Shown here piece after piece: positions 14,932 through 47,125 of a stretch of 64,000 nt of DNA (position 1 is the stretch's first letter; every line of letters starts with the position of its first letter). The stretch is from Minisyncoccia bacterium. GTDB lineage: Bacteria; Patescibacteriota; Minisyncoccia; Phycocordibacterales; GWA1-40-21. The DNA is taken from positions 32,972 through 96,971 of the forward strand of contig JBAVTE010000027.1 of assembly GCA_049695975.1 (NCBI GenBank). The letters run 5' to 3'. The translations under genes and the position numbers were made by a program. The notes under the pieces were generated by a model. It was not told the DNA's origin. It ran no database searches and was given only the letters and a program-made list of their open reading frames with translations.

Positions 14932-14995
14932 TTGTATAATGGGGGAGGTGATTAGAAGATAATCATCCTCCCCCATTTTTTATAAAAATTAAATT

Positions 14996-16357: not shown

Positions 16358-16359
16358 CT

Positions 16360-18255: not shown

Positions 18256-18300
18256 TTTTTTTATAAATGACAAATTTATATAAAGTGATTATTGGATAAA

Positions 18301-18364
18301 ATCGTTGACGATAATTTATTTTGCAGTATCATTATACTAAGGTTTAACAATTAAATAAACAAAA
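18301..18364. repeat. 64-bp direct repeat, copy B, immediately upstream of the CAP-domain gene start
   Basis: 63/64 identical to 11674-11737. Ends 3 nt before ATG 18367. Confidence 0.85.
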
Positions 18365-29578: not shown

Positions 29579-29640
29579 GACCTGATTTAAATTTTATTTT
29601 GTGGTATTATTGTAGTGTTATTAGTTATTAATTTAAAACT

Positions 29641-30201
29641 ATGGAAAATACACAAACAGAACCGAAAAAATATTCTCCTGTTATCAAGTGGTCACTCGTC
29701 GTAGGAATAGTAATCGTATTAAATTTATTTTTTAATTACTTGATCTCTCTAGTTTACAAAGCCCCAGAATATAATAATTTCTGTAAACAAGAACAAATAA
29801 TGCCAGTAGCAAATACTAGGGACGCTTGTTTGACAGCTGGTGGACAGTGGAGTGAATACAATCAAATAGATCCAAACACTACACCAGCAAAAGTGATTGG
29901 TGTTACTGGAAATTGCAACACACAATACACTTGCGGTAAAAATTTTGATGTTGCAAACAAGAGTTTTGAAAGAAATGTTTTTGTCGTACTTGTTGTTGTT
30001 GGCGTGATTCTTGTCGCATTGAGTTTTATTTTAGTTTTTAATTGGATTGTTTCAGTATCTTTCTCAATGGGAGGAATTTTGTCAATTATTATTGCTTCGA
30101 TGAGATATTGGGGGAATGCAGACAATCTTATTAGGGTTCTAATATTATTCTTTGCACTTGTCGCTCTTATTTATTTTGCAATTAAAAAGTTTACAAATTA
30201 A
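29641..30201 (+). CDS. Hypothetical membrane protein with Cys-rich ectodomain
   Basis: TM helices flank a Cys-containing loop. Confidence 0.5.
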   Translation: MENTQTEPKKYSPVIKWSLVVGIVIVLNLFFNYLISLVYKAPEYNNFCKQEQIMPVANTRDACLTAGGQWSEYNQIDPNTTPAKVIGVTGNCNTQYTCGKNFDVANKSFERNVFVVLVVVGVILVALSFILVFNWIVSVSFSMGGILSIIIASMRYWGNADNLIRVLILFFALVALIYFAIKKFTN

Positions 30202-30253
30202 TTTTCAAAAATAATAAAATGTGGGTCACATTTGCTTATTGCTAGTAGAAATA

Positions 30254-30288
30254 AAAAAGCGAGTCCCGTCGTGGGGCTCGCTTTAAAA
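30254..30288. terminator. Bidirectional rho-independent terminator between convergent genes
   Basis: AAAGCGAGTCCCGTCGTGGGGCTCGCTTT. Confidence 0.65.
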
Positions 30289-30305
30289 TGATCGCATCTA
30301 AACAA

Positions 30306-30506
30306 CTAAATAACGAGTCTACACTCAATGGGAAATTTTGTTTTACATTCATCACAAACTATCCCCACACCTTCAATATGTTCCCAACTATTCTTTGAAA
30401 TGATTAGTTTGATAGGCGTATCTAAAATGTCTCCTTCCAATTCTTTTCCACAGTGGTTTCCACAAATCACAAAATACCTAAGATGTAATTTGCCTATTTC
30501 CATCAT
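30306..30506 (-). CDS. Small zinc-ribbon-like protein (CxxxC ... CxxC)
   Basis: 66 aa with CGNHC and CDEC pairs. Confidence 0.4.
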   Translation of the reverse strand: MMEIGKLHLRYFVICGNHCGKELEGDILDTPIKLIISKNSWEHIEGVGIVCDECKTKFPIECRLVI

Positions 30507-30576
30507 AAAGATCTCCTTATAATTAATTGTTTATGTTCTTCTATTAAAAATTTATCATATATGATATAACTTTGCA

Positions 30577-31800
30577 ATGACAGTTAAACAAAAAAAATCT
30601 CAAAAAGTCTTCGTGGGAATGTCTGGGGGAGTCGACTCTTCCGTTTCTGCAGCACTTTTAAAAAAGGATGGGTATGACGTAACTGGAGTTTTTATAAAAG
30701 TTTGGCAACCTGACTTTGTAGAATGCACTTGGCGAGAAGATAGACTTGACGCGATGAGAGTTTGTGCCAAACTTCACATACCTTTTTTTACACTTGATTT
30801 GGAAAAAGAATATAAAAAAGAAGTCGCTGACTATATGATAGATGAGTACAAAAAAGGAAAAACTCCGAATCCTGATGTAATGTGTAATAAATATGTAAAG
30901 TTCGGCGCTTTTTTTGATTGGGCTATAAAGCAGGGTGCTGATTTTGTGGCGACGGGGCATTATGCACGCGCAAGCAAAGTTCTAGAAGATAGTTCGTCGG
31001 AGTACGGGTTGGCTGCCCAGCGGGAAGTCAACCTCAAGTCTCGGCCTCGCTCGTCCGCTCCAGAAAGCGGACACCTGTGGCCTGTCTCGGCCTGCGAAGC
31101 CTCCAAAAACGAACTATCTTCTAGGACTTTACCTACCCAACTCTTGGCCGGCAAAGACAAGAATAAAGACCAATCATATTTTCTCTGGACTCTTACTCAA
31201 AAGCAATTACAAAAAACACTTTTTCCGATAGGCAACACCGAAAAACCAGAGGTCAGAAAAATTGCCAAAAAGCTCGGACTTTCGACTGCGGAGAAAAAGG
31301 ATAGTCAGGGTGTTTGCTTCCTCGGCAAATTTGATATGAAAGATTTTTTGAATCATTATATAAAAGAATGTCTTGGAAAAGTTTTAAATGAAAAAGGGGA
31401 GGTGGTAGGTAGTCATAATGGAGCAATATTTCTCACAATAGGGCAGAGACATGGTTTTAAAATTATAAAAAAAACAAATTCGAGCAAACCACTTTTTGTG
31501 ATAGCAAAAAATTTACAAAAAAATACAATTACTGTTTCTGAAAATCCAGTACAAGATACAGGTGAGTCCAAAGAAATTGAAATAGAGAAAGTCAGCTGGA
31601 CGGGAGGAGTGGATCCAGATTTATCAAAAAGATATTTTGCCAGAATCCGATATAGACAAACGCTTTTACCGTGTAAAATCAAAAAAAGTGTTGGTAGCGT
31701 TGTCATTTCTTTTGAAGAATCACAAAAAGCAGTTTCCTCGGGACAATCTCTAGTAATATATGATGGGGAAGTATGCCTCGGTGGCGGAATAATAAAATAA
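30577..31800 (+). CDS. mnmA: tRNA-specific 2-thiouridylase MnmA, carrying an in-frame ~50-aa GC-rich insertion
   Basis: PP-loop SGGVDSS, DQSYFLW, and C-terminal beta-barrel domain. A foreign segment lies between GHYARA and LAGKDKNKDQSYF. Confidence 0.88.
   Translation: MTVKQKKSQKVFVGMSGGVDSSVSAALLKKDGYDVTGVFIKVWQPDFVECTWREDRLDAMRVCAKLHIPFFTLDLEKEYKKEVADYMIDEYKKGKTPNPDVMCNKYVKFGAFFDWAIKQGADFVATGHYARASKVLEDSSSEYGLAAQREVNLKSRPRSSAPESGHLWPVSACEASKNELSSRTLPTQLLAGKDKNKDQSYFLWTLTQKQLQKTLFPIGNTEKPEVRKIAKKLGLSTAEKKDSQGVCFLGKFDMKDFLNHYIKECLGKVLNEKGEVVGSHNGAIFLTIGQRHGFKIIKKTNSSKPLFVIAKNLQKNTITVSENPVQDTGESKEIEIEKVSWTGGVDPDLSKRYFARIRYRQTLLPCKIKKSVGSVVISFEESQKAVSSGQSLVIYDGEVCLGGGIIK
30978..31128. mobile_element. 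151-bp GC-rich insertion with 19-bp terminal inverted repeats, in-frame within mnmA (MITE-like)
   Basis: Left end AGTTCTAGAAGATAGTTCG; right end CGAACTATCTTCTAGGACT (18/19 reverse-complementary). Interior is about 62% GC against about 33% in the host gene. Confidence 0.6.
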
Positions 31801-31816
31801 ACGGTATAATCCCTCT

Positions 31817-32668
31817 ATGCCAGAATTTTATATAACGAAATATAATGGAGACAAAGAACTTTTTGATCCACAGAAATTAAAATTATCTCTTTTAAATATC
31901 GGAGCCATACCAGACGTGGCGGATCTTGTAATGGAAGAAGTTTCTAAAAATATTAAAGACGGCTCATCTACTCGTGAGATTTATCGGATGGCTTTTGCTT
32001 TTCTGAAAAAGAGAGAAAGGCCTGTCGCTATAAGATATTCTTTAAAGAAAGCAATAGCTGACCTTGGTCCCACAGGATTTCCTTTTGAAAAATTTGTGGC
32101 AGAAATTTTTAAGGCTCAAGGTTATAATGTAGAAACAGACAAAATTATCAAAGGACATTGTGTTGAGCACGAGATAGATGTTCTGGCATGGAATGAGCAT
32201 GAATTAATTTTAACGGAAGCAAAATTTCACACTGATTTCAGTATGAAATCAGATTTGAAAGTCGCCCTATATATAAAAGCAAGATTTGATGATCTAGCAA
32301 ACACAAAGATTATGATAGGGGGCAAGGAAAGGACGATGACAGAAGGTTGGCTCGTTACAAATACCAAATTCAGCCAAACCGCCATTGAATATGGCCAGTG
32401 TCAAAATCTAAACATGGTCGGATGGAATTACCCTTTTGGAAATAATCTACATAATATGATAGAAAAGGCCGAGCTCATTCCTCTCACAGCACTTACTACA
32501 CTAAATACATCAGAAAAACATATATTTTTATCTCGTGGTATTGTCTTATCTACAAGTTTGTTAGACGAGTCTCTTTTAAAAGAGTTCAATTTTTCCGAAA
32601 CTAGAATCAAAAATATAAAAACAGAAGTAAGCGAGCTTTGCGAACATTGTAAATTACAAATAAAATAA
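31817..32668 (+). CDS. ATP-cone domain fused to a PD-(D/E)xK restriction-endonuclease-like (Mrr-cat-like) domain
   Basis: N-terminal ATP-cone (YITKYNGDKELFDPQKLKLSL). Central HEIDVLAW...LTEAKFH matches D-x(n)-E-x-K. Confidence 0.55.
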   Translation: MPEFYITKYNGDKELFDPQKLKLSLLNIGAIPDVADLVMEEVSKNIKDGSSTREIYRMAFAFLKKRERPVAIRYSLKKAIADLGPTGFPFEKFVAEIFKAQGYNVETDKIIKGHCVEHEIDVLAWNEHELILTEAKFHTDFSMKSDLKVALYIKARFDDLANTKIMIGGKERTMTEGWLVTNTKFSQTAIEYGQCQNLNMVGWNYPFGNNLHNMIEKAELIPLTALTTLNTSEKHIFLSRGIVLSTSLLDESLLKEFNFSETRIKNIKTEVSELCEHCKLQIK

Positions 32669-32669
32669 A

Positions 32670-33479
32670 ATGGCATTTGAATACAAAAAAAGAACAAGAG
32701 GTGTCTACAATCCGAGTGACAAAGAATCATTTCGTCTTTCTCGTTCTAAAATTGATTTATTTGTGCAGTGCCCCCGATGTTTTTATTTAGATATTCGTTT
32801 TGGTACAGGTCGTCCGTCATCTTTCCCATTTACATTAAACAACGCAGTAGATTTACTCATGAAAAAAGAGTTTGACATTCATCGCGTTGCTCAGACCGCA
32901 CATCCCCTTATGAAAAAGTATGGCATAGATGCTGTGCCTTTCAATGATCCACGAATGGAAGAATGGCGAGACGCAATGCGTAGAGGAATATCTTTTTTGC
33001 ACAAACCGACGAATCTCCCGATCAGAGGTGGCATAGATGATGTATGGGTAGATCCAAAAGGTCAGCTTATGATTGTAGATTATAAAGCTACAAGCAAAGA
33101 CGAAGAGATCACTTTAAATGACGAATGGAAAGACGCCTACAAACGCCAAATGGAAATCTATCAATGGCTTTTCAAACAAAACGGTTTCAAAGTATCTGAA
33201 ACAGGATATTTCGTGTATGTAAACGGAAAGACAGACAAAGAAGCTTTTGACGGCAAGCTAGAATTTGATATTTCCATTCTTCCTTACAAAGGCAACACAG
33301 ATTGGATAGAAAAAGTTATTTTTGATATGAAAAAATGTCTAGAGTCAGAAGTTCCTCCAGACCCTGCCGAAAAATGCGAATTTTGTGCATATAGGAAAAT
33401 CACCGGCCAAGTCCTCCTCGATATTTCCAAAACGCAAAAACTTAAAAAACAAGAAAAATCCGACAAAACACTTTTTTAG
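32670..33479 (+). CDS. Cas4/RecB-like PD-(D/E)xK nuclease with Fe-S cluster cysteines (standalone)
   Basis: GGIDDVWVD...IVDYKAT, QxxxY motif (QMEIYQ), N-terminal CPRC and C-terminal C-x12-CEFC. Confidence 0.65.
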   Translation: MAFEYKKRTRGVYNPSDKESFRLSRSKIDLFVQCPRCFYLDIRFGTGRPSSFPFTLNNAVDLLMKKEFDIHRVAQTAHPLMKKYGIDAVPFNDPRMEEWRDAMRRGISFLHKPTNLPIRGGIDDVWVDPKGQLMIVDYKATSKDEEITLNDEWKDAYKRQMEIYQWLFKQNGFKVSETGYFVYVNGKTDKEAFDGKLEFDISILPYKGNTDWIEKVIFDMKKCLESEVPPDPAEKCEFCAYRKITGQVLLDISKTQKLKKQEKSDKTLF

Positions 33480-33487
33480 ACAAAAAA

Positions 33488-34120
33488 ATGTCAAAATTAA
33501 AAATAATTTACAATAAGGATTTCGATGTTAAACGGGTTATAAATACAATTAAAAAAATAGATTGGTTTGTTGAGAATAAATATGAATATAAGAAATTTTC
33601 ATTCCCAAAAGTATTAGACGTAGAAAAACTGAAAGATTATTCAGATGAAGAAATAGAAAATGCTGTTATATCTGAATATGATGAAGAAGTTTATAAAAAG
33701 AATGAAACTTTTTTAATTAATCATTGGTATAAAATATCAGAAGAAATAAAGAACAGTTTTTCAAAAAGCTCTATTCCTGTACAAAATGAATATATAATAT
33801 ATTTTACAAAATATGGTACAGGGGGTAGTTATAACCTACCAAATACTGTAATTATAAATTTAACTAGCCGTTGGGAGGTTGGAATGTTGAGAACGATAAT
33901 CCACGAGATTATTCATCTTGCTATAGAAGAAAATATAATTAAATATAAAATAGGGCAAGCACAAAAGGAAAGAATTGTAGACCTATTTTTCGTCTACAAT
34001 TTTCCAAGAAGAGTATATATGCAAAATGTTTATAATTCTACAAATACAGGAAAAATTGATCAAACATTTGATGATAATTTTCCTGACATGAATGCTGTTA
34101 TTGAAAAATCTTCCCAATAA
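33488..34120 (+). CDS. Hypothetical protein with HExxH motif
   Basis: HEIIHLAIEE. No other recognisable domain. Confidence 0.4.
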   Translation: MSKLKIIYNKDFDVKRVINTIKKIDWFVENKYEYKKFSFPKVLDVEKLKDYSDEEIENAVISEYDEEVYKKNETFLINHWYKISEEIKNSFSKSSIPVQNEYIIYFTKYGTGGSYNLPNTVIINLTSRWEVGMLRTIIHEIIHLAIEENIIKYKIGQAQKERIVDLFFVYNFPRRVYMQNVYNSTNTGKIDQTFDDNFPDMNAVIEKSSQ

Positions 34121-34161
34121 AGTTTGACCGTGCAATTATCAAAAAGAATAAATATATAAAT

Positions 34162-34575
34162 ATGCAAATAAAAGCTCAAGCAATAGTTTATAAAATAATA
34201 AAAGGAGAAATTTACTGTCTATGTTTAAAGAGATGTCTTTCGGATGGTGGTTTTTGGCATGTTATTACAGGTACTTTTGAAGATGCTGAGAACGATAAAT
34301 CATGTCTTCAGAGAGAAATTATGGAAGAACTTGGTGAGCAAAAAATTCTAAATATTTCCCCGAGGTTAAAGGAATGGATATGGAAGAAAAATAATGATGA
34401 TATTGTAATATATGATTATGCTCTTTGTTTGGATGATAATGATATTATTTTAAACGAAGAACATACTGAATTTGTTTGGCTAAAACCAGAAGAAGCCTAT
34501 AATAAATATGAAAAAACTTCCGCAAAAGAAATGATTAGTTTACTGAAAAATTATTTATTTCAAATTAATGAATAA
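34162..34575 (+). CDS. NUDIX hydrolase
   Basis: Nudix box GTFEDAENDKSCLQREIMEELG. Confidence 0.8.
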   Translation: MQIKAQAIVYKIIKGEIYCLCLKRCLSDGGFWHVITGTFEDAENDKSCLQREIMEELGEQKILNISPRLKEWIWKKNNDDIVIYDYALCLDDNDIILNEEHTEFVWLKPEEAYNKYEKTSAKEMISLLKNYLFQINE

Positions 34576-35382
34576 ATGCAAGATAATTACGAGAGATTAG
34601 GTGTATATTATAAAGCTATGAAAAAAAATAAAAAAATACATATTGCCGTTTTATTTGGTGGAAAATCGGCTGAACATGAAGTATCAATTAGGTCGGCACA
34701 AAGCATTTATAATGCTCTTGATAAGCAAAAATATGACATTACTCTTATTGGCATAGATAAAAATGGTGTTTGGATTCCTTTTAATACGGAGAAATTACTT
34801 TCCAGCAAGAGAATACTTTTGAGTGAACAAAATATGAATGTTAGCACAGCTGTAGCCTCTTATGGTACTAATGGAGAATTTTTAGCAAAGAAAGGTAATG
34901 GTGGTATGAAAAAAGTTGACATTGTCTTCCCGGTTCTTCACGGTCCTTTTGGCGAGGACGGCACAATTCAAGGTTTGTTAAAGTTAGCTAATGTCCCTTT
35001 TGTCGGAGCGGGTGTTCTAGGTTCGGCGGTTGGAATGGATAAAGATGTTGCGAAGAGACTTTTACGAGATGCCGGTCTACCGACTGCCCACTTTCATGTT
35101 TATAACGAATATGAGAAAAAAACTATTTCATTTGAAAAAATTAAGGTAAACCTTGGATTACCATTTTTTATTAAACCAGCAAATCTCGGATCTTCTGTTG
35201 GTATCACAAAGGTTCATAATAAAGCTGAATTTTTAAAGGCAATAAATTCTGCATTTCACTATGACAATAAAATCCTTATTGAGGAATATATAAGGGGCAA
35301 GGAAATTGAGTGTTCTGTATTAGGTAATGGAAAGCCAACCGCATCAGTTTGTGGGGAAATTATTCCTCATCAATCCTCCTAG
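34576..35382 (+). pseudogene. ddl: D-alanine-D-alanine ligase, C-terminally truncated (about 95 aa missing)
   Basis: N-terminal and central ATP-grasp domains are intact (VLHGPFGEDGTIQGLL, FIKPANLGSSVGI). It stops just before the expected FYDYEAKY/Mg-binding region, and the truncation coincides with the left edge of the inserted island. Confidence 0.6.
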
Positions 35383-35410
35383 GATAAATAAAGTTAGCAT
35401 CAGTATAGTC

Positions 35411-35476
35411 GGGTCCTTGCGCGTCTGAATTGATATATTTAATATTTCGATTCAGATTGCGCAAGGCCCTTTTTTT
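35411..35476 (+). terminator. Long-stem rho-independent terminator
   Basis: GGGTCCTTGCGCGTCTGAATTGA-loop-TCGATTCAGATTGCGCAAGGCCC followed by TTTTTTT. Confidence 0.7.
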
Positions 35477-35673
35477 ATATTTTTTTATTTTAATTTTTTC
35501 AACTTGGACATGTCATGTCCAAGTCTAATTATCAAGTCTAAACCTTGCTACGCCTTGTAATTCCTGCGGAGGCAGGAATCCATCTTCTCTTCATCCAATC
35601 TTTTTCCGTCTGTTATTGCGAGAAAGTTTCTGACGAAGCAATCAAGTATTTTATCTTCTGACCCTAAAAGTTC

Positions 35674-36270
35674 TTAGCAAGGAATTTCCTTGCTATGTGA
35701 ATTGGAATAGTCTAAAAGATTTTTAATTTCCTTAACATAATTTGGATTTGAAATATCATGGTCTGAGTTTGAAACAATTATTCTCTTTTTCTTACCTTTC
35801 CACAGATCAAAATATTTTTTGTCACCATTTGGAAATAAATCTTTTTCTTCTGAACCACATAAGAATATTGCAGGTGTTTTTGTATTATTAGGAAAATCTT
35901 GTTTTCTAAAAGCAGTAAACCTCCTCCTACCAAGAATTTTTTCTGCTATTTTTGGCAAAAAATTAATATCATTACTGAAATATGGAGATAAAGAACATAA
36001 AATTAGTTTTGAAAAAGTATGATATTTTGTGGACAATACTGCGATATATGCACCGAGAGAAAATGCTAGAATTATAGAGTCATTTTGATAATTTTTATCA
36101 ATAATTTTATTAAAGTCCTCTAGCCATCTTTCTATTGTATTCCATTTCCATTTTGGCTGATAGAATACAACATTATATTTTTTTGATTTTAAATACTCAA
36201 TAAAATCTAAATATGGAGCATCTCTTAAACTTTCACCAAATCCAGGAATGATATAAATTGTTTGTTTCAT
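35674..36270 (-). CDS. Alpha/beta-hydrolase fold protein
   Basis: Nucleophile elbow AFSLGAY and beta-strand start IYIIPGFGES. Start is ATG at 36270 or an upstream TTG at 36342. Confidence 0.65.
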   Translation of the reverse strand: MKQTIYIIPGFGESLRDAPYLDFIEYLKSKKYNVVFYQPKWKWNTIERWLEDFNKIIDKNYQNDSIILAFSLGAYIAVLSTKYHTFSKLILCSLSPYFSNDINFLPKIAEKILGRRRFTAFRKQDFPNNTKTPAIFLCGSEEKDLFPNGDKKYFDLWKGKKKRIIVSNSDHDISNPNYVKEIKNLLDYSNSHSKEIPC

Positions 36271-36370
36271 TGATAGTATTTTATCATATAAATAAAAAAG
36301 AGGTGATACTTTGCCTACTTTTTGAAATTTGAAATAAAACAAGTGTTTTTTCTGTGCATAACACCCCCCA

Positions 36371-36399
36371 TTGACGCTAATTTTACTATTTGTTACAAT
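36371..36399 (+). promoter_or_regulatory. Sigma70-like promoter (TTGACG-17-TACAAT) driving the precursor-peptide operon
   Basis: TTGACG at 36371-36376, 17-nt spacer, TACAAT at 36394-36399. Confidence 0.55.
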
Positions 36400-36472
36400 T
36401 TACAGTAGAAACCTTAGGTGTTCTAAGGTAGAGTAGGTTAGATAAGTTCATTAACAGAGAAAGGAGGTCTTT

Positions 36473-36592
36473 ATGCAGAGCCCAACTAAGAAGATGTTCA
36501 GTAAGAAAACGTTGAAGAACTCGTTTTTGCGGAGGAGGGTGTCTAGGGTCAGGTTGACTCAGGCCCTGAATGCCAGTAAGCCGGGAAGTTAA
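36473..36592 (+). CDS. 39-aa poly-cationic small ORF (candidate RiPP precursor peptide), absent from the ORF track
   Basis: AAAGGAGGT RBS lies 7 nt upstream. Sequence is MQSPTKKMFSKKTLKNSFLRRRVSRVRLTQALNASKPGS (net charge about +11). Directly followed by a hairpin, then the RRE/rSAM genes. Confidence 0.5.
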   Translation: MQSPTKKMFSKKTLKNSFLRRRVSRVRLTQALNASKPGS

Positions 36593-36612
36593 TCCCATAT
36601 TGGTGGTTGTCA

Positions 36613-36651
36613 GGTGGAACGCTCCGTATGAGCGTTCCACCTATTTTTTTT
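36613..36651 (+). terminator. Intrinsic terminator/attenuator between the precursor ORF and maturase genes
   Basis: GGTGGAACGCTC-CGTAT-GAGCGTTCCACC, a perfect 12-bp stem, followed by TATTTTTTTT. Confidence 0.75.
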
Positions 36652-36677
36652 GTTGTTTTTTGAATAAGGAGAATATC

Positions 36678-36887
36678 GTGAATGACAAATATGTAGCTCT
36701 TGTGGAAAACTTTACGTTGAAACAGTCTGTCACTTCTAGTGTCTTGTATTGTCTGAAGAGTGGTGCAATTTATGATCTTTCATTAGATCAAGTCGAGTTC
36801 TACATTTACTTGATGGATCTCAGACTATTGATCAGGTTATTGATAAATACCATAGGAAATCTAGATCCACAGTTGTACAGTTTCTAA
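36678..36887 (+). CDS. PqqD-like RRE (RiPP recognition element) N-terminal fragment, frame-shifted relative to the downstream rSAM
   Basis: GTG start with AAGGAG RBS. YCLKSGAIYDLSLDQVEFYIY matches the PqqD/RRE core. The family continuation (LDGSQTIDQVIDKYHRKSRSTVVQFLNHL) is in the -1 frame, contiguous with ORF 36893. Confidence 0.5.
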   Translation: MNDKYVALVENFTLKQSVTSSVLYCLKSGAIYDLSLDQVEFYIYLMDLRLLIRLLINTIGNLDPQLYSF

Positions 36888-38056
36888 ACCACTTGAAAGG
36901 TATTCAGGCACTGAGACTAATCAACAAACCTGTGCCAAGATTAATGCGACAAAATCTGGTACCTGATAGCCGACTCGAATCAGTTCATTTGGAAGCGAGC
37001 GGTGAATGTAACATGAAGTGTGTTCATTGCTACCAAGCAAAGTATGTCAAATCTGGTGAAAAACTTAATCACCGTGAGATTATACTTCTTCTTGATCAGC
37101 TACAGAATATGCAGGTTAGTAATGTTGGAATCAGTGGTGGTGAACCACTAATGATGCCTGATCTTACGGAAGTTATGAGAGCTATTGAAGCGAGAGATAT
37201 GAGAATCTCAGCTCTCTTTACAAATGGCCTTCTGGTCGACGACAAGTTAATCAAGGAGACGAATGCACTGCGAAGTAAGTTCTCATTCTTCATTAGCCTA
37301 GACTCGATTCCAGGACAGACACTTGCTTTCCGTGGAGTAGGGAAAAGAGCATCTAGGGTGATTCTTGAGCGGATAGTTTCAAAGATTAGGTTGTTAATTT
37401 CCAGCGGTATCAGTGTTGTCATCAATACTGTCGTAAATCTGGAAAATATCAGCTATCTTGATAAGATGTATGATTTGGTTACTGAGCTGAAAGTTGACAG
37501 TTGGAGGCTCGGTTTTCCAAAGATGACACCTGAATTCAAGAAACACAAGAATGGTTTCTATGTTGAATGGAATAGTATTGCTGAACACTGTTTGTCCTTG
37601 CTTCAGCGGCATTTGATAGGAGGCTTACCATTTCATCTGCAGATTGAGTATTTGTTCAGGGAAGAACTCTTTAAACAGGGTATACAAGAGCTATCTGACA
37701 TGGACTTTGTCTGTGATTACGAGGGTCGTCGTTCTGAGTGTTGTGTAAAGCCCAATGGAGATGTCGTCTCTTGTGCGTACTGTTCCGAGTTACCATTGGG
37801 TAACATCAGGAAGTCGTCGATTTGGGATATTTGGTATTCAACTCAAATGAGTGATTTGAAAAAGATCCAGATCAACGACGTGGTAGAGTGCAGGGGATGT
37901 GAGCTTCGTAGTCTTTGCGGAACTGGTTGCCGTGCGAATGCTCACTTTCTTCATGGAGATTTTCACAATGCTAAAGATGATTACGCTTGTTTAGCGGTAG
38001 CTTTCTTTAAGGAGAAAGTGGTCCCTCTTTTGAGGAAGTACAGTATGATTAGTTGA
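36776..38056 (+). CDS. Radical SAM/SPASM-domain peptide-modifying enzyme, with the RRE C-terminal half in-frame upstream of the annotated ATG 36893
   Basis: rSAM cluster CNMKCVHC (CX3CX2C). SPASM cysteines CAYC...CRGCELRSLCGTGC (CX2CX5CX3C). Frame open from 36776. Confidence 0.75.
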   Translation, partial: SFIRSSRVLHLLDGSQTIDQVIDKYHRKSRSTVVQFLNHLKGIQALRLINKPVPRLMRQNLVPDSRLESVHLEASGECNMKCVHCYQAKYVKSGEKLNHREIILLLDQLQNMQVSNVGISGGEPLMMPDLTEVMRAIEARDMRISALFTNGLLVDDKLIKETNALRSKFSFFISLDSIPGQTLAFRGVGKRASRVILERIVSKIRLLISSGISVVINTVVNLENISYLDKMYDLVTELKVDSWRLGFPKMTPEFKKHKNGFYVEWNSIAEHCLSLLQRHLIGGLPFHLQIEYLFREELFKQGIQELSDMDFVCDYEGRRSECCVKPNGDVVSCAYCSELPLGNIRKSSIWDIWYSTQMSDLKKIQINDVVECRGCELRSLCGTGCRANAHFLHGDFHNAKDDYACLAVAFFKEKVVPLLRKYSMIS

Positions 38057-38152
38057 TCTTTTGACACACAAGGTATAATAAAATGCCCACTTTGAAAAAA
38101 GTGGGCATTTATTGTTTGCATTAAGATAAATAATGATTACAATGTACATTAT

Positions 38153-38890
38153 ATGAATAATTATAAAAACTTTTCAAAATATTATGACATGGCTATGGGT
38201 GACAGAACGGCAGAGGGTATATTTATTAAGAAATTAATAAAACAGTATAATTCGAAGGCAAAGACTGTATTAGAATTGGGCTGCGGTACAGGAGCCTTTC
38301 TTAAATATCTCTCAAATCATGGCTATAAAATGGCAGGAATTGATTTATCACAGGAGATGCTAGAAATTGCAAGACAGAAGGTTCCGAATGCTAATCTGTT
38401 ATGTCAAAATATGGCAATTTTTTCCTTGCAATTAAAATTTGATGTTGTTTTGTGTTTATTTGATTCAATAAATCACTTAATTGATTATAATGATTGGGAA
38501 AAGGTTTTTCTCCAGACATATCTACACTTGAATGATAGTGGTTTATTTATCTTTGACATTAATACAAAATCAAAACTAGATATACTTGCAGGGTCCGATC
38601 CAATTGTTAATGAAGTGGATAATAAAATAATTTCTATGAAAGTAATTTTGAAAAATAATATTTATAATTGGAATATTAAAATAGTTGAAAAACAACCAAA
38701 TGATAGCGAAATGATATATTTAGAAAATATTCAAGAACAATCATTTCCAATATCAATGATAGAAAAATCGCTCAAGAAAAATTTTGAAAAGGTTATTAAG
38801 ATTAGTCAAAGTGGTATGCAAGCAACTGAAAATTCTCGACGGGTATACTTCATTTGCCTTAAGAATTTAGAAAATAAATTGAAGAGGTAA
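38153..38890 (+). CDS. Class I SAM-dependent methyltransferase
   Basis: Motif I VLELGCGTGAF and motif II CLFDSINHL. Confidence 0.75.
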   Translation: MNNYKNFSKYYDMAMGDRTAEGIFIKKLIKQYNSKAKTVLELGCGTGAFLKYLSNHGYKMAGIDLSQEMLEIARQKVPNANLLCQNMAIFSLQLKFDVVLCLFDSINHLIDYNDWEKVFLQTYLHLNDSGLFIFDINTKSKLDILAGSDPIVNEVDNKIISMKVILKNNIYNWNIKIVEKQPNDSEMIYLENIQEQSFPISMIEKSLKKNFEKVIKISQSGMQATENSRRVYFICLKNLENKLKR

Positions 38891-38922
38891 TTGGAGTCAG
38901 CCATGCTCTGTAGAAAACACCC

Positions 38923-39258
38923 CTAATAAACAGGCAACACAATCATAATGTTGTGTGTCAAAACCTTTAGAGCCATTTCTCGGCATTGACACCAATATGT
39001 TTTAGAAAGAATTGACTCAGACAGATTCCGTTTCAGCATACTCATCACTGTTTCCGATTGCCATCTCTGACCATATTCCCCCTTGTCGAAATGTTCTACT
39101 ATTTCCCTTCGATATTTTCCGCTAGGCAGTTTCTTTTTTGGACGTCCTATTTTTGGATTAATAATTGAGTGTATCTGCAGTTTTTCTCGTGAATAGACAT
39201 GATTAGATTCACTATCATAACCAGCGTCGGCCGTGATTGTTTTAATGGGAAATTACTA
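38923..39258 (-). pseudogene. IS4/IS5-superfamily DDE transposase, C-terminal fragment only
   Basis: Minus-strand translation gives TITADAGYDSESNHVYSREKLQIHSIINPKIGRPKKKLPSGKYRREIVEHFDKGEYGQRWQSETVMSMLKRNL...VLPVY*. No start codon; stops lie directly upstream. Confidence 0.6.
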
Positions 39259-39263
39259 TATTT

Positions 39264-39295
39264 CATGGCAAGGTCAGACCTTGCCATTTTTTTTA
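39264..39295. repeat. Perfect palindrome CATGGCAAGG-tcaga-CCTTGCCATG plus T8, member of the GCAAGG/CCTTGC hairpin family
   Basis: Related copies at 41523-41545 (TCATGGCAAGGattgtCCTTGAT), 35695-35715 and 7469-7500. Confidence 0.6.
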
Positions 39296-39401
39296 CGACT
39301 GTCATTCCCGCGGAGGCGGGAATCAAGAATAGTTTTATTATTAAGGTTAAGCCTTGCCACGCCTTATTTCTTTTTTTACCATTTATATATATAATAAATA
39401 A

Positions 39402-40310
39402 ATGAAAATAAACAATTCAAATGAAGATGTTTCGATTGGGGTGATTGCTCCAGCACGGCCGATTTATAATATTCAAAAAGAAATCGACGATGGAATTACC
39501 GAAATAAAGAGTTTTGGTTTTAATGTTAAAAAAAGTAACAATTTGAATAAAAAATTGTTTTATTCAGCAGGAACTGTCGAAGAACGCGTGTCCGATATTC
39601 ATGAAATGTTTTCTGATAAAAAAGTCAAAGCTATTATATGTGCTACAGGTGGTGCCAGTTCTAACCAATTAATAGAACATCTAGATTTTGATTTAATAAA
39701 GAAAAATCTTAAAATATTTATGGGATATAGTGATATTACCGCTTTACTGCTTGCAATCAACAAAAAAACTAGCATGCCTACATTTTATGGTCCCATGATT
39801 AGAGACTTTGCTGGTTTAACAGATGAAGCTAAAAAATTTACAGAAGATTTACTGAAAGGAAAGAGTAAAAATTTAAATTATCTACAACCATACAAAACAT
39901 TACGAAAGGGTAAGGTTCGAGGTAAACTAGTCGGCGGAGTACTGACTGTATTTAATAGTTTGTTGGCTACACCATATATGCCAGATTTAAAAGGGAAAAT
40001 TCTTTTTTGGGAAGAGGTTGGCACTTGTCCGGCACAGATTGATTTTTTATTACAGGAATTAAAATTGGCTGGAGTGTTTAAGAAAATTAAAGGAATGGTG
40101 GTTGGATATCTATCAGATTGTACGGATAAGAAATATCCGCAAGACAATCGTTCCATTGATGAAATTATTTTAGGGCGAACTAAAGGTTTTGATTTTCCAA
40201 TAATTAAAGTTGATTATTTTGGTCATGATGTAAAAAACTTTCTTGCTATTCCGATTGGTACAGAAGCAATCATAGATACAAATAAAAAGATTTTTTCTGT
40301 TAAATTATAA
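39402..40310 (+). CDS. S66-family LD-carboxypeptidase (LdcA/MccF-like)
   Basis: IGVIAPARP N-terminus and nucleophile motif GYSDITALL. Confidence 0.75.
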   Translation: MKINNSNEDVSIGVIAPARPIYNIQKEIDDGITEIKSFGFNVKKSNNLNKKLFYSAGTVEERVSDIHEMFSDKKVKAIICATGGASSNQLIEHLDFDLIKKNLKIFMGYSDITALLLAINKKTSMPTFYGPMIRDFAGLTDEAKKFTEDLLKGKSKNLNYLQPYKTLRKGKVRGKLVGGVLTVFNSLLATPYMPDLKGKILFWEEVGTCPAQIDFLLQELKLAGVFKKIKGMVVGYLSDCTDKKYPQDNRSIDEIILGRTKGFDFPIIKVDYFGHDVKNFLAIPIGTEAIIDTNKKIFSVKL

Positions 40311-40459
40311 AAATAGGCTTATTTTTTGTCCGCTCCTGAGTAATATGTAATTATCAAGGCTAAAAAAAGCCTTGCTACGCCTCACCCAATACAAGAAAAA
40401 CACTTTAGTTGACAATTACTTGACAATTGAATACAGATTGGTTTACAATAGAGTAACCT

Positions 40460-41512
40460 ATGAAAAACAAGGAAAAGATATTGGATTTAATAAACAAAAG
40501 TGGAAAGATTACCACTTCGGAAATCACGGCCAAACTGGGCTTTTCTCGCCAGTATGTGAGTTTGATTATTTCTATGCTTGTTACTGAAAAATCTGTAATA
40601 AAATTTGGCGGAACCAACGGTGCTTTTTATGTCTCTTTTTCATACGCAAAAGAGCATCCTGAAGTTTTTCCGTCTTCATTTAAAAAAACATACAAAAATA
40701 TTTCACTTGAGGAGCATAATGTTTTGACTGAGATTGAAGAAAAATTTCCTCAATTAATAGACTCGTCTGAAAATGTTAAGAGCATTTTTGCTTTTGCTTT
40801 TTCTGAAATGTTTAATAATGCTATTGAACACTCACAAACAAAAACAATTTCTATAGAAATAGCGATGAGAAACAAAAAGCTTTCATTTGTTGTTTTGGAT
40901 TCTGGAGTTGGAGTCTTCCGCAATATTATGAAAAAGAAAGGGTTGAATTCCGAGATAGAAGCTATACAAGACTTATTGAAAGGAAAGACTACTACTATGC
41001 CAAAGTCACATTCTGGTGAAGGAATCTTTTTCACATCAAAATCAGCCGATGTATTTATTTTAGATAGTTTTGGCAAACAACTCACAGTAAATACAAAAAC
41101 AGAGGGTGTGTCAATAAATAATACTTCCATTATCAAAAGGGGTACGAAAGTAATATTTGAAATAGATGTGAATTCTGATAAACATCTAAATCAAGTATTT
41201 AAAAAATATACAAATCTAACTAACGAAAGCGACTACGGGTTTGATAAGACAGAAATACGAGTAAAATTATATACCATGGGTGGGGTTCATATATCACGTT
41301 CACAAGCACGCAGGATTCTTTCTGGTCTAGAAAAATTTAAAATAATTTTATTGGATTTTGAAAATGTTCCAGTTGTTGGTCAAGCTTTTGCAGATGAGAT
41401 ATATAGAGTTTTTCAGTATAAATATCCAGATATCAAAATTGAAGAAGAAAATATGTCTGCGGGTGTTCGCTTTATGATTGAAAGGGCAAAAAATGAGGCA
41501 AAGAGTAAATAG
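40460..41512 (+). CDS. Putative regulator: N-terminal wHTH, RsbW-like GHKL ATP-binding domain, C-terminal STAS-like (DUF4325-like) domain
   Basis: HTH ITTSEITAKLGFSRQYVSLII. FSEMFNNAIEHS...VVLDSGVG. C-terminus KIILLDFENVPVVGQAFADEI. Confidence 0.5.
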   Translation: MKNKEKILDLINKSGKITTSEITAKLGFSRQYVSLIISMLVTEKSVIKFGGTNGAFYVSFSYAKEHPEVFPSSFKKTYKNISLEEHNVLTEIEEKFPQLIDSSENVKSIFAFAFSEMFNNAIEHSQTKTISIEIAMRNKKLSFVVLDSGVGVFRNIMKKKGLNSEIEAIQDLLKGKTTTMPKSHSGEGIFFTSKSADVFILDSFGKQLTVNTKTEGVSINNTSIIKRGTKVIFEIDVNSDKHLNQVFKKYTNLTNESDYGFDKTEIRVKLYTMGGVHISRSQARRILSGLEKFKIILLDFENVPVVGQAFADEIYRVFQYKYPDIKIEEENMSAGVRFMIERAKNEAKSK

Positions 41513-41636
41513 CTAGAATAATTCATGGCAAGGATTGTCCTTGATATTTATTACCACAGTTGTCACTTGATTTATATTTTAGACAGAATACAATTGTATA
41601 TGGATTAGATTATTTTAATGCTTTTTTTAAGAAAAG

Positions 41637-42074
41637 ATGGTGAGTGTGAAAACTATCATCAGTCATCATGTTAGAATTAATCTAAAAGGAAACGGCGAAT
41701 TTGAAAAATGGCTTGTTGAAGAAACTTTTGATCTTGGTGCATATATAACAGCCCAAACTGATTGGGCCTTGAAGTGTCCATATAACAGAAATGGAGTTAA
41801 AGAAAGATATGGATGGGATGATGCAAAACTAGATGCAAACCCCAAAATAGCCGTTGCTTACTTCATTGAACAACATGGCAATGACTGGTTTAGGGATAAC
41901 CGAAGATCAAAATTCATTACAACAAAACAAGTTCTGCTTGATTGTTCCGATCAAAATTGTCCTTTTTCTATAATTCAGGATATCTGTAAAAGATGTCCTG
42001 ATTGCAAAGTTGCAAAACTTGGAATTGTACCGGAAAATATTTTAGATTTTTCCGAAATTTCTTGTGCAAAATAA
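41637..42074 (+). CDS. Hypothetical Cys-rich protein
   Basis: ORF with CxxC pairs near the C-terminus. Confidence 0.4.
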   Translation: MVSVKTIISHHVRINLKGNGEFEKWLVEETFDLGAYITAQTDWALKCPYNRNGVKERYGWDDAKLDANPKIAVAYFIEQHGNDWFRDNRRSKFITTKQVLLDCSDQNCPFSIIQDICKRCPDCKVAKLGIVPENILDFSEISCAK

Positions 42075-42088
42075 TAAGAAAGGATGTC

Positions 42089-42125
42089 ACCGCGGGTATC
42101 ATACTATGATACCCGCGTTTTTTTA
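42089..42125 (+). terminator. Rho-independent terminator
   Basis: CACCGCGGGTATCATACTATGATACCCGCGTTTTTTT. Confidence 0.8.
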
Positions 42126-42143
42126 TTATGATATAATTTTTAT

Positions 42144-42737
42144 ATGCCTACAAAAACAGAATTGATGAAAAGAATAGAAAACGAAGTCCTGAATTTAAAA
42201 AAATCTACTCTTTACAAATACAGGACTGAAAATAAATACTTTCCGGTAATAGGAGAGGGAAGTCACAATGCAAAAATATTGTTTGTCGGTGAAGCACCAG
42301 GAAGAAATGAAGCGAAAATTGGGAGACCGTTTTGCGGATCTGCAGGAAAAATACTGGATGAACTTCTGGCTTTTGTAAACATTCCACGAGAAAATATTTA
42401 TATTACAAATATTGTTAAAGACAGGCCTCAGGAAAATAGAGACCCAACGCCTAAAGAAATAGAAATTTATGGGCCATTTTTAGATAGACAAATAAACATA
42501 ATTCAACCCAGCACAATAGTGGCTTTGGGTAGATATTCTATGGGTTACATTATGAAAAAATTTGGACTTCATTCAAAAATCGAGCCGATAGGTAAAATAC
42601 ATGGTAAATCATATGATACAGAAACAAATTATGGAAAAATTAAAATTATCATCTTGTATCACCCATGTGTCGCTGTGTACAATTATTCAAAAATAAACGA
42701 TCTAAAAAAAGATTTTAAAATTTTAAAAAAGATATAA
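42144..42737 (+). CDS. udg: Uracil-DNA glycosylase, family 4
   Basis: GEAPGRNEAKIGRPFCGSAGKILDELL motif. Confidence 0.85.
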   Translation: MPTKTELMKRIENEVLNLKKSTLYKYRTENKYFPVIGEGSHNAKILFVGEAPGRNEAKIGRPFCGSAGKILDELLAFVNIPRENIYITNIVKDRPQENRDPTPKEIEIYGPFLDRQINIIQPSTIVALGRYSMGYIMKKFGLHSKIEPIGKIHGKSYDTETNYGKIKIIILYHPCVAVYNYSKINDLKKDFKILKKI

Positions 42738-42755
42738 ATATGTTATATTCTATTT

Positions 42756-44549
42756 ATGAAATCATCAGAAATTCGTGAAAAATATTTAAAATTTTTTGAA
42801 AAAAAGGGGCATAAAATAATTTCCTCTGCTTCTCTTATTCCAGAAAACTATATAATACCTGACAAAGGATCTCTTTTTACTACTGCTGGTATGCAACCGC
42901 TCATTCCATATTTACTCGGAGAGAAACATCCGGCTGGCACGAGGATTGTCGATGTTCAGAAGTGTGTCAGAACAGGTGATATTGACGATGTAGGCGACAA
43001 TCGCCACCTTACTTTTTTTGAAATGATGGGAAACTGGTCACTCGGTGATTATTTTAAAAAAGAATCTATCGCGTGGAGTATGGAATTTCTGACAGATAAA
43101 AATGAAGGCCTCGGTCTTGATCCAAAAAGACTTTTTGTCACAGTTTTTAAAGGCGAGGAGGGAATACCACTAGATGAAGATTCTATTAAATTTTGGAAAG
43201 AAAATTTTATAAAACACGATATCACCGCGGGTGTCGCTGAAAATGATGGAATTATAAAGAAAGACGTGAGAATTATTCCTCTCGGAAAAGAAGATAATTT
43301 TTGGATTGCTGGTCAAACCGGTCCTTGTGGCGGAGACACTGAGATGTTTTATGATGTGAGATCTGAAGAGGATAAACTTGAAGGAAATTTTTATGATCTT
43401 GTAAAATCCGGCAAAATTATTGAAATTTGGAACAATGTTTTCATGGAGTTCAACAAAACTGCCGATGGAAAATATGAAAAACTAGCAAAACCAAATGTAG
43501 ATACAGGAATGGGGCTCGAAAGAACGACTGTGGTAATACAAGGAAAAAATAATGTATATGAAACAGATATTTTTGAACCTATTATTTCTTATATAAAATC
43601 AAATGCCAAAAAATATGATGAAAAATCATCTCGGATAGTAGCTGACCACATCCGTTCTGCTGTTTTTATAATTTCTGATGGAGTCATTCCTTCAAACACT
43701 GAGGCAGGATATGTCCTTCGAAGAATTTTGAGAAGGGCGATAAGGTTCATAGACATACTTGATCTTTCTAGAGAATCAATTTTTGATTTAGCCAAAATAG
43801 TCATCAATAATTTTTCTTATGCCTATCCTGAATTAAAAAATAAAGAGGTAGAAATTTTGGAAGTGATTAAAAATGAAAATGAAAAATTTAGACTGACGCT
43901 AGAAAAAGGTCTAAAAGAATTTGAAAAAGGTATCGATGTCTTCAATCTGTTTCAAACTTATGGTTTTCCCATTGAAATAACAATAGAATTGGCAAAGGAA
44001 AAGGGGATTGAAATTGATATGAATGATTTTAATGAGAAAATGAAGAAACACCAAGAAATTTCCAAAGCTGGTTCAGAACAGAAATTCAAAGGGGGACTAG
44101 CTGGAACAGGCGAGATGGAGACCCGATATCACACGGCGACACACTTACTACTAGCTTCGCTCAGAAAAGTGCTTGGCGGAGAAATTGTACAAAAGGGAAG
44201 TAATATCACTACAGAAAGAATGCGTTTTGATTTTAATTGGCCAGAAAAAGTGCCTGCAAGCAAACTGAAAGAAATAGAAGATTTGGTCAATCAAAAAATT
44301 CAAGAGAAAATTCCGGTGGAACTGATTGAACTTCCAAAAGAAGAGGCAAAGAAAATCGTCACCACACTTTCATTTGACCTATCTAAATACGGAGATGTCG
44401 TAAAAGTTTATAAAATAGGCGACTTCAGCACCGAATTTTGTGGTGGACCACATGTCGCAAACACCAGTGAACTCGGACATTTTAAAATTACAAAAGAAGA
44501 AGCATCCAGCGCCGGCGTCCGAAGAATAAAAGCAGTTTTGGAGCAATAA
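42756..44549 (+). CDS. alaS: Alanyl-tRNA synthetase, short form lacking the C-Ala domain
   Basis: Catalytic core (FTTAGMQPLIPYLLG, FFEMMGNWSLGDYFK) and editing-domain HxxxH (HTATHLL). 597 aa. Confidence 0.85.
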   Translation: MKSSEIREKYLKFFEKKGHKIISSASLIPENYIIPDKGSLFTTAGMQPLIPYLLGEKHPAGTRIVDVQKCVRTGDIDDVGDNRHLTFFEMMGNWSLGDYFKKESIAWSMEFLTDKNEGLGLDPKRLFVTVFKGEEGIPLDEDSIKFWKENFIKHDITAGVAENDGIIKKDVRIIPLGKEDNFWIAGQTGPCGGDTEMFYDVRSEEDKLEGNFYDLVKSGKIIEIWNNVFMEFNKTADGKYEKLAKPNVDTGMGLERTTVVIQGKNNVYETDIFEPIISYIKSNAKKYDEKSSRIVADHIRSAVFIISDGVIPSNTEAGYVLRRILRRAIRFIDILDLSRESIFDLAKIVINNFSYAYPELKNKEVEILEVIKNENEKFRLTLEKGLKEFEKGIDVFNLFQTYGFPIEITIELAKEKGIEIDMNDFNEKMKKHQEISKAGSEQKFKGGLAGTGEMETRYHTATHLLLASLRKVLGGEIVQKGSNITTERMRFDFNWPEKVPASKLKEIEDLVNQKIQEKIPVELIELPKEEAKKIVTTLSFDLSKYGDVVKVYKIGDFSTEFCGGPHVANTSELGHFKITKEEASSAGVRRIKAVLEQ

Positions 44550-46406: not shown

Positions 46407-47125
46407 TCATCTATATCTTTGTTCATATGCTTTTGCACATTCATGATAATAGAAAATACGTGCGAGATCGTAATCAGAATCACCCCATTCAGCAAATTCC
46501 CAATCAAGTACTCCAGTCAAATGGTGTTGGTCAGTAAGGAGATTATGTATAATTAAATCACCATGAACAAGAGAAGGTGTTGTTTCACTAAAAACTTTTT
46601 TAGTATTATCTTCGAGTAATATGCTGGATATTTCTTTAATTATATCCTCAACTTCCGTAAATTCTTTAATTTTTAAAATTTTTGTTTCTAAACCATCAAT
46701 CAAGAATTGCCAATATTTATTGTATGAATTTCCATTATTTACAGAATAAAATTCCTTTTCTTTGATTGATTTAATATTAATTAAAAATTTGATAATGTCA
46801 TCAATAATACTATCCTTGTCTTGATTATTAAGAAATTTCCATACTGAATCAATTGTTTGCCCAGATAAACGATTTTCTATCATAACTGGAATATTTTCAA
46901 CTTCTCCCAGCCAAATTATTTGAGGAATAAGTTCCCGTTTAATTTTTGAAGAAGATTAGCTTCTCTTCGTAATAATTCAGGTTCGTCGTCTCTAAAACGG
47001 ACAACATAATTGTCAGAAATAAAAACTTTAAAACGTGTACCGGAAGAAACTGGTAAAAAGTTTTCCTTATTAAACTTTGTCATCAGTGTCTTAATCTTTT
47101 TTAATCTATTAAAATATTTGTCCAT
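46407..47125 (-). pseudogene. APH/choline-kinase-family phosphotransferase split into two ORFs by a frameshift
   Basis: N-lobe ORF 46916-47125 and C-lobe ORF 46407-46883 (LVHGDLIIHNLL, DWEFAEWGDSDYDLA) lie in different frames. Confidence 0.6.

Follow-up and report, generated by a model that had tools for sequence, protein, structure and literature searches.

The window analysed here is a stretch of 64,000 nucleotides within a 126,553-bp contig (JBAVTE010000027.1) of a Minisyncoccia bacterium, a metagenome-assembled genome (MAG) from the candidate phyla radiation (CPR; Patescibacteria). Between positions 34576 and 41636 of this window, the gene for D-alanine--D-alanine ligase (ddl) is truncated at its 3' end, a radical S-adenosylmethionine (rSAM) gene is frameshifted, and an insertion sequence (IS) of the IS5 family is reduced to a stump. 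All three lesions recur in a second assembly of the data, and the arrangement of genes around them is not conserved among relatives. The region is probably a variable, decaying stretch of a CPR chromosome and not a working system or a single, discrete mobile element. It is embedded among housekeeping genes, with those for prolyl-tRNA synthetase (ProRS), YchF and MnmA upstream, and those for uracil-DNA glycosylase, alanyl-tRNA synthetase, ribosomal proteins, RpoA and DnaK/DnaJ/GrpE downstream.

The ddl gene, of the DdlA type, occupies an open reading frame (ORF) at 34576-35382 of the plus strand, with the start at 34618 according to both the homologues and NCBI, and the 254 codons from there (34618-35382) are classed as a 5' fragment, a pseudogene, by Pfam, NCBIfam, homologue alignments and DNA homology. 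The end of a Nudix-family gene (34162-34575, plus strand; Pfam NUDIX) abuts the start of this ORF exactly. The Pfam N-terminal domain Dala_Dala_lig_N (PF01820) is complete (profile positions 1-121 of 121, E 1.4e-37), and the C-terminal ATP-grasp domain Dala_Dala_lig_C (PF07478) is cut short (positions 1-108 of 204). The match to the NCBIfam model NF002525 covers positions 2-251 of 364 with a score of 304.6, below the equivalog cut-off of 457. Among the 120 best homologues, those with a known contig are 321-411 amino acids (aa) long and none is this short. The closest homologue (P0002; related loci and proteins from the database and metagenome searches are labelled L001-L105 and P0002 and the like) is 85% identical and 369 aa long, and several others, 73-75% identical, have 356-369 aa.

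The protein alignment breaks after '...ASVCGEIIPH', where the relatives continue with HEFYSYEAKYLDD (HEFYSYEAKY...) and the window has 'QSS*'. At the DNA level, homology to three independent relatives (L001, L008 and L010) stops at 35372, so that the end of ddl homology falls at 35372-35375 and is followed by three foreign codons and a stop. A preliminary description of this DNA, made from the sequence without database searches, had correctly noted the premature end of ddl at 35382 and the loss of the Mg-binding and omega-loop residues; its estimate of about 95 missing C-terminal residues has to be raised to about 114-115. P0002 aligns end to end with the solved DdlA structures 7U56, 3Q1K and 3I12 (E about 1e-118 to 1e-120), and because the match extends over the whole length, the missing part can be seen to contain 'EFYSYEAKY' and 'ARVDFF...INEINTIPG'. 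The fragment therefore lacks the omega-loop (xEFYxYxAKY) and the Mg/ATP-binding Asp, Glu and Asn (RVDFF...NEINTxPG), motifs that occur elsewhere in the window only in a divergent Ddl-like paralogue. With these residues gone, the product would be unable to make D-Ala-D-Ala; from what is established about Ddl enzymes, it presumably cannot be a ligase, and the gene is best regarded as a 3'-truncated and, as predicted from its sequence, catalytically dead fragment, in agreement with the earlier suspicion that it is non-functional.

No remnant of the ddl 3' part is found in the 64 kb by tblastn (E<=50) or blastn (word size 7), apart from a match to the paralogue at 14.6 kb, and the segment 35373-35673 contains no IS end, repeat or recognisable gene remnant that could explain the break. 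The absence of a ddl 3' end beyond the block of following genes and from the rest of the 64 kb shows that ddl was damaged by deletion or replacement and not by a simple insertion. The preliminary description had proposed instead that an insertion separated ddl from a gene for an LD-carboxypeptidase. The latter gene (39402-40310, plus strand) is indeed present: it encodes an intact S66-family LD-carboxypeptidase-like protein of 302 aa, the length of its homologues, with both Pfam domains, Peptidase_S66 and S66C, complete (PF02016, 1-121 of 121; PF17676, 1-118 of 120). The score of 125.9 against the LdcA equivalog is below the cut-off of 378 and the substrate is not assigned. The next gene (40460-41512, plus strand) encodes, according to Pfam, a winged helix-turn-helix domain, a GHKL ATPase (HATPase_c) and the STAS-like DUF4325, as had also been recognised.

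The expectation that relatives would align to an uninterrupted ddl-ldc arrangement fails in the neighbourhoods of both the Ddl and the S66 homologues, none of which is conserved. The S66 orthologues (78% and 64% identical) follow a gene for an M20 peptidase or for a class II aminoacyl-tRNA synthetase (Pfam tRNA-synt_2). The intact ddl relatives fall into two settings, with the 3' genes differing in every relative examined. In one setting, a Nudix gene lies directly 5' of ddl (L007/L008, L013); the window has this arrangement, but the Nudix proteins of the window and of the relatives share just the Nudix box. In the other (L001-L005, L014/L015), ddl stands in the order M15/VanY-like peptidase, ddl, serine hydroxymethyltransferase (SHMT), methyltransferase, sometimes with a second ddl and rve transposases nearby. 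The closest intact relatives (85% and 73%) are found in this second setting (L001, 215-6588; L002, 101-7304; L014, 1400-5003), and in L001 and L002 the M15/VanY-ddl-SHMT module is flanked by rve-type transposase genes; in CPR, this module resembles a van-like cell-wall module that is possibly mobile.

The composite alternative, in which a single composite or nested accessory element entered a ddl-ldc operon, split ddl and moved the LD-carboxypeptidase gene 4 kb away, draws on the fact that ddl and the S66 gene flank the block, that the IS stump and genes of atypical G+C content (GC) lie between them, and that an S66-like gene does occur 2.7 kb downstream of an intact ddl in L007/L008, the only such case. 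That gene, however, is just 22% identical to the one in the window and follows genes for an APH-family protein and ProRS (in the window, ProRS is encoded 6.4 kb upstream of ddl); the S66 orthologues do not adjoin ddl; and the 3' part of ddl, which such an element should have left on its far side, is missing there and in the 64 kb. Nor are there direct repeats flanking the block, other than hairpins resembling repetitive extragenic palindromic (REP) elements, an integrase or recombinase gene in 35383-41636 (Pfam, NCBIfam), a second inverted repeat, a tRNA gene near the block, or a match of 35373-39400 to plasmid and phage collections. The genes of the block also differ in composition and in state of decay. 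Such an insertion thus appears unlikely, and there is no evidence of a former ddl-ldc pair in the relatives examined. Of the earlier proposal of serial insertions and deletions at a peptidoglycan locus, the mosaic history, the IS remnant and the dead ddl survive; the former ddl-ldc locus does not.

The second lesion lies in a three-gene cassette (36473-38890) that accounts for the GC-richer block described previously as resembling a system for ribosomally synthesized and post-translationally modified peptides (RiPPs). Its GC enrichment is confirmed, at 40-44% in a sliding profile compared with the window average of 34%, and the block consists of a precursor-like ORF, a gene with rSAM and SPASM domains, and a methyltransferase gene. 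All are on the plus strand. A promoter-like site, TTGACG-17-TACAAT (36371-36399), identified by consensus match alone, precedes the 39-aa precursor-like ORF MQSPTKKMFSKKTLKNSFLRRRVSRVRLTQALNASKPGS (36473-36592), which stands behind AAAGGAGG and is conserved 5' of the rSAM gene in L017/L018 and L103-L105. Between the precursor and the rSAM gene is an attenuator- or terminator-like 13-bp GC-rich hairpin followed by T8 (36612-36650; -24.2 kcal/mol, z -6.0), and L017 has a hairpin at the same place. The rSAM/SPASM gene (36678-38056), with a conserved N-terminal extension, is followed by an intact gene for a class I SAM methyltransferase (38153-38890; Pfam).

As it stands, the rSAM locus reads as two ORFs, 36678-36887 and, from a TTG start, 36893-38056, and the ORF listed just upstream of the latter (36570-36887) is in a different frame. 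The frameshift was located by scanning all single-base insertions: with a T or a C added at 36798-36802 (context GAGTTCTAC), the translation reads DQVEFLHLLDGSQT, which matches the 'DQVEFLQLLNG' of the homologues without a gap. Since a single-base repair restores this match, the gene appears to carry a 1-nt deletion in its N-terminal extension. The deletion, predicted to disable the gene, is a lesion that the preliminary description had missed. The repaired protein has 460 aa and aligns over 100% of its length, with 64-67% identity, to intact homologues of 457-466 aa; where a source is named, it is Nomurabacteria, Kaiserbacteria, Kuenenbacteria or Parcubacteria, and one homologue is labelled Nanoarchaeota. 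Its translation contains the core CxxxCxxC as CNMKCVHC, and the Pfam scores are 62.9 bits for PF04055 and 35.3 bits for SPASM (PF13186). No named NCBIfam family is reached, the best being ScmE (101 bits, cut-off 400). The N-terminal extension is probably the part that recognises the peptide, although Pfam PqqD is not detected in the repaired N-terminus or in the homologues P0122 and P0136, and PF05402 is matched in distant homologues only.

The combination of a small ORF, an rSAM protein of ~460 aa and a methyltransferase of ~238 aa recurs in L017/L018 (5780-8183 in L017), a JGI contig and L103-L105 (4838-7289 in L103), in unrelated neighbourhoods. From end to end, the window methyltransferase shares 53% and 50% identity with those that follow the rSAM genes of L017 and L103, respectively. 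The precursor ORFs of the three lineages, 31-39 aa long, all end in ...VRLTQALNASxPG(S/E)*, and in the conserved part the differences between lineages are synonymous third-position changes. The GC-rich segment 36386-36650 was also considered as a known structured RNA; Rfam gives nothing at gathering thresholds in the window and sub-threshold noise only in 35300-39500. Because the differences are synonymous and Rfam yields no family, the segment is taken to be a conserved peptide ORF with a hairpin and not an RNA element. The cassette peptides form an uncharacterised family, mostly from CPR with the one homologue labelled Nanoarchaeota, with an invariant ...VRLTQALNASxPG core, and the precursor contains no Cys, Trp or Tyr. 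PADLOC defence models return only generic rSAM, methyltransferase and Cas4-like matches, and nothing specific was found in the literature on RiPPs of CPR or on ddl pseudogenes in Patescibacteria.

The third lesion adjoins the cassette. The IS remnant (38894-39250, minus strand) comprises an outer inverted repeat (~38894-38922) and the last ~107 codons of the transposase (38923-39245), matched by Pfam DDE_Tnp_1 at 78-198 of 200 and by the NCBIfam IS5-family model NF033579 at 182-288 of 289; the C-terminal-only transposase fragment noted earlier as of IS4/IS5 type can accordingly be assigned to the IS5 family. A metagenome scan yields 248 relatives, the best of which is 82% identical and encodes a transposase of 305 aa flanked by perfect inverted repeats of 17 nt, TGCTCTGTAGAAAACAC; two other full-length relatives have 34-35-nt inverted repeats about 1 kb apart, and these full-length relatives (L023-L025) are groundwater metagenome contigs. 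The window copy retains the outer repeat (...ATGCTCTGTAGAAAACACCC at 38903-38922, extending to ~38894) and codons ~199-305, and its homology ends near 39250, beside a hairpin at 39265-39287. About 640 bp are missing, including the other inverted repeat and the transposase N-terminus. The repeat occurs once in the window, with no second copy at <=3 mismatches, and the missing N-terminal two thirds are not found anywhere in it. Judging from what is left, the stump should be unable to transpose. The insertion point is 3-5 bp after the methyltransferase stop codon.

The composition of the genes involved is uneven. The 51 other genes of the window have a G+C content at third codon positions (GC3) of 0.26 ± 0.07, compared with 0.70 for the precursor (z 6.4), 0.45 for the IS stump (z 2.7) and 0.41 for the rSAM gene (z 2.2); ddl and the methyltransferase, both at 0.26, have z of about 0, and the alpha/beta-hydrolase-like gene between ddl and the cassette has a GC3 of 0.17 (z about -1.3). 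The term 'mosaic' is thus justified, but the composition does not single out one block as imported.

The lesions are unlikely to be artefacts of a single assembly. The 268-aa ddl ORF is present also in the Logan assembly of run SRR28012095, in which a 21-kb contig (SRR28012095_209799) matches window positions 24576-43340 with 100% identity (18,765 bases, no mismatches or gaps) and takes in the sites of all three lesions. Because this assembly is identical across the lesions, the junctions are not the product of one assembler alone, and a continuation of the ddl ORF after a sequencing error, which the preliminary description had named as one alternative to truncation, finds no support at the junction. 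An artefact at codon 254 of ddl or at the rSAM frameshift, with strains joined into a chimera or bases misread in sequencing and the genes really intact, would fit the origin of the sequence from a MAG, the absence of further decay in the ddl fragment and the single base at issue in rSAM. Nevertheless, given the independently produced Logan contig, the absence of any repeat at the ddl junction that could mislead an assembler, and the position of the frameshift in GAGTTCTAC and not in a homopolymer run, with the same sequence in both assemblies, this explanation is very unlikely.

Some points weigh against reading the region as a decaying stretch assembled by separate events. The reads behind the two assemblies are probably the same, so that a systematic error in the consensus could still account for the 1-nt frameshift. 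The protein database contains no Ddl relative with more than 85% identity to the fragment and the best in the genome collection is 74% identical; hence no uninterrupted locus of the same species is recovered, and there is no close relative with an intact locus to show the ancestral arrangement or the right-hand ddl breakpoint. Both a second ddl and the missing 3' part were sought within the 64-kb window. Composition is a weak guide to origin because the methyltransferase is host-like in GC despite its membership in the cassette. Finally, dN/dS of the ddl fragment against L001 is 0.077/1.32 over 252 retained codons, with no internal stops, similar to the 0.112/1.78 of an intact-versus-intact comparison (L001 against L007), and such values do not tell whether the fragment is still selected or became a pseudogene only recently. 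Most of the divergence seems to have accrued under selection, and the truncation would therefore be recent relative to the nearest sampled relative.

These values bear also on whether the 254-residue product is itself functional, in binding or regulation or as half of a split enzyme with the C-terminal half elsewhere in the genome. The clean ORF, the low dN/dS, the terminator directly after the ORF and the NCBI annotation as a protein and not a pseudogene (MGB8816172.1, 'MAG: D-alanine--D-alanine ligase family protein [Minisyncoccia bacterium]', 254 aa) are all compatible with this, as is a 249-aa Ddl of another organism with 60% identity (P0115; SRC, SRR3989344_6591719) that ends in '...PGEITT', within three residues of the break in the window. 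P0115, however, is a read-assembly fragment without a contig record, from which no inference is drawn for that reason; its end is probably a contig end, and the others among the 120 best homologues with a known contig all have 321-411 aa. Moreover, the break falls inside the C-terminal ATP-grasp domain (108 of 204 positions) and not at a domain boundary, which makes continued selection on the fragment unlikely, and no C-terminal half is present in the 64 kb. A functional short protein is accordingly highly improbable.

Under the reading of the region as decaying chromosomal DNA, a full-length DdlA-type ddl of ~356-369 codons would have lost its last ~115 codons by deletion or replacement, with the left breakpoint at 35372-35375, and the remainder would now continue through the three foreign codons to the stop and the strong terminator hairpin behind it. 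Separate events would have built up the sequence to the right. One component may be the intact, host-like hydrolase gene on the opposite strand; another would be a horizontally shared three-gene cassette, with its own putative promoter, precursor, hairpin, rSAM gene and methyltransferase gene, in which rSAM later suffered the single-base deletion. An IS5-family element of ~1 kb would have landed 3-5 bp behind the methyltransferase stop and later lost ~640 bp, and several short GC-rich palindromic, REP-like elements would have been placed in the spacers. We infer this order of events, as well as an intact ddl at an earlier time in the lineage and the independence of the lesions.

The features named in the preliminary description all exist at or close to the positions it gives, and the spacers and the hydrolase gene bear out several of its details. 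Directly 3' of the truncated ddl is a long, terminator-like hairpin with a T-run (35411-35475, plus strand), of which the hairpin itself (35411-35469) has a 25-bp stem (-36.4 kcal/mol, z -7.6), with T7 after it; next comes a palindromic, REP-like cluster (35502-35645) composed of a palindrome (35502-35524), element A (35540-35555), element B (35556-35580) and an imperfect palindrome (35609-35645). The minus-strand alpha/beta-hydrolase-like gene (35674-36270) is intact and encodes 198 aa with a nucleophile-elbow-like AFSLG motif; it has a weak Pfam Hydrolase_4 match and corresponds end to end to a family of ~185-195-aa proteins. Beyond the IS stump, fold and repeat scans identify the palindrome with T8 at 39265-39287, also noted earlier, and then element B' (39300-39324) and element A' (39349-39364), together spanning 39265-39364. 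Repeat scans add a CAAGG...CCTTG hairpin with a third copy of element A (40355-40382) and another such hairpin 3' of the winged helix-turn-helix gene (41529-41543, plus strand).

Element A (AARCCTTGCYACGCCT) has three copies in the window and element B (ATTCCYGCGGAGGCRGGAAT) two, all in this region. Element B varies between its copies by a compensatory pair, so that the 8-bp stem is preserved, as is usual for REP-like hairpins but not for a duplicated target site. CAAGG...CCTTG hairpins number six in the window, compared with about one expected, and four of these are in the region. The window has 19 perfect GC-rich hairpins, of which 7 fall in the region, although it makes up 9.8% of the sequence (binomial 0.0015, for a region picked post hoc). 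Chance is no concern for the gene calls, and each of the short repeat families is absent from, or rare in, shuffled sequence, and within the window the short GC-rich hairpin families are confined to this 6-kb stretch. None of the REP-like elements occurs in the related loci fetched, and the spacers have no homology elsewhere except for one marginal 28-bp match to L021/L022 (E 0.009).

The ddl gene is normally essential for peptidoglycan synthesis, and its loss raises the testable question of whether D-Ala-D-Ala is still made by this organism. Profile and blast searches detect one other Ddl relative in the window, a divergent Ddl-like ATP-grasp ligase of 336 aa (13921-14931, plus strand) that is 28% identical to ddl. 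It has no PF01820 match in Pfam and scores 143.9 against NF002378 (cut-off 243) and 133.3 against TIGR01205 (cut-off 245.65). The N-terminus reads MFMRILILYNLAKIV, with the substrate-binding motif GGxSxEHEVS missing; the Mg-binding region is retained as ARMDY...LEVNYNPG. Its neighbours encode a PALP enzyme, an ornithine-cyclodeaminase-like enzyme, a second ATP-grasp ligase, a C39-like peptidase and an aminotransferase, so that the locus looks like a small-molecule or peptide ligase cluster and not part of the cell-wall pathway. A 64-nt direct repeat, 98% identical (11674-11737 and 18301-18364) and containing a promoter-like spacer, brackets the block with these genes, in which the aminotransferase is of class III; the bracketed block (11674-18364) may be a small-molecule or peptide biosynthesis cluster.

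Should ddl truly be lost and no canonical D-Ala-D-Ala ligase be left in the lineage, the region might record a CPR episymbiont in the course of abandoning the synthesis of peptidoglycan precursors. The organism would then rely on the 13921-14931 ligase or on dipeptide or precursors derived from a host. Separately, the cassette peptide, lacking Cys, Trp and Tyr, would be modified by a new rSAM chemistry. We consider this scenario unlikely.

A few other features of the window are of a similar kind. An exact 55-nt direct repeat (21951-22005 and 22122-22176) comprises the 3' end of tRNA-Val(cac) with a hairpin and a copy 171 bp downstream; it adjoins a tRNA-Pro/Ala/Ala cluster and may be the att-site scar of a lost integrative element. 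On the minus strand, at 46407-46883, lies a 158-aa APH-family ORF that matches positions 77-212 of a 239-position profile and may likewise be truncated. At 25-3379 and 6427-7044, genes for a type I restriction R subunit and a YgjP-like protein and one unknown ORF have GC3 values of 0.42-0.49 (z 2.4-3.3), more atypical than the rSAM gene, which suggests a second imported region at the window start.

The region is thus viewed as a case of ordinary gene decay in a plastic region and not as a new system, which indicates that accessory DNA in decay, the scars of IS elements and REP-like hairpins are present even in very small CPR genomes. For annotation, the 254-aa 'D-alanine--D-alanine ligase family protein' cannot be a ligase, if its predicted loss of catalytic residues is taken at face value, the annotated rSAM ORF is the rear part of a frameshifted gene, and metabolic reconstructions of this MAG that score ddl as present would err. 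The cassette conserved in CPR genomes may merit study in an intact copy, such as that of L017 or L103.

In comparison with known systems, the N-terminal domain and the first half of the ATP-grasp domain of the ddl fragment are clearly of the type of the enterobacterial DdlA ligases (7U56, 3Q1K, 3I12), but without the last ~115 residues this is a gene fragment and not an enzyme. Likewise, the IS stump shares with the IS5 family (NF033579; L023-L025) 82% aa identity with the L023 transposase in the part that is left, the motifs ADAGYDSE and Y-x2-R-x3-E-x6-K and a matching terminal inverted repeat, but comprises only ~357 of ~1000 bp, with the region of the first catalytic Asp, the N-terminal ~198 codons and the second repeat missing. 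The cassette resembles the rSAM/SPASM RiPP systems of PqqE, MftC and ScmE in its CxxxCxxC core, SPASM domain, upstream precursor ORF, hairpin and tailoring methyltransferase, and differs from these in an rSAM protein that scores below the named families, is frameshifted and has no PqqD match, and in a precursor without Cys, Trp or Tyr. As a whole, the region departs from the plastic regions of reduced or symbiont genomes in that the damaged gene is a normally essential one, with no canonical replacement visible in the 64 kb, but, with three lesions within 4 kb and neighbourhoods that vary among relatives, it resembles the pseudogenes and IS scars of such regions.

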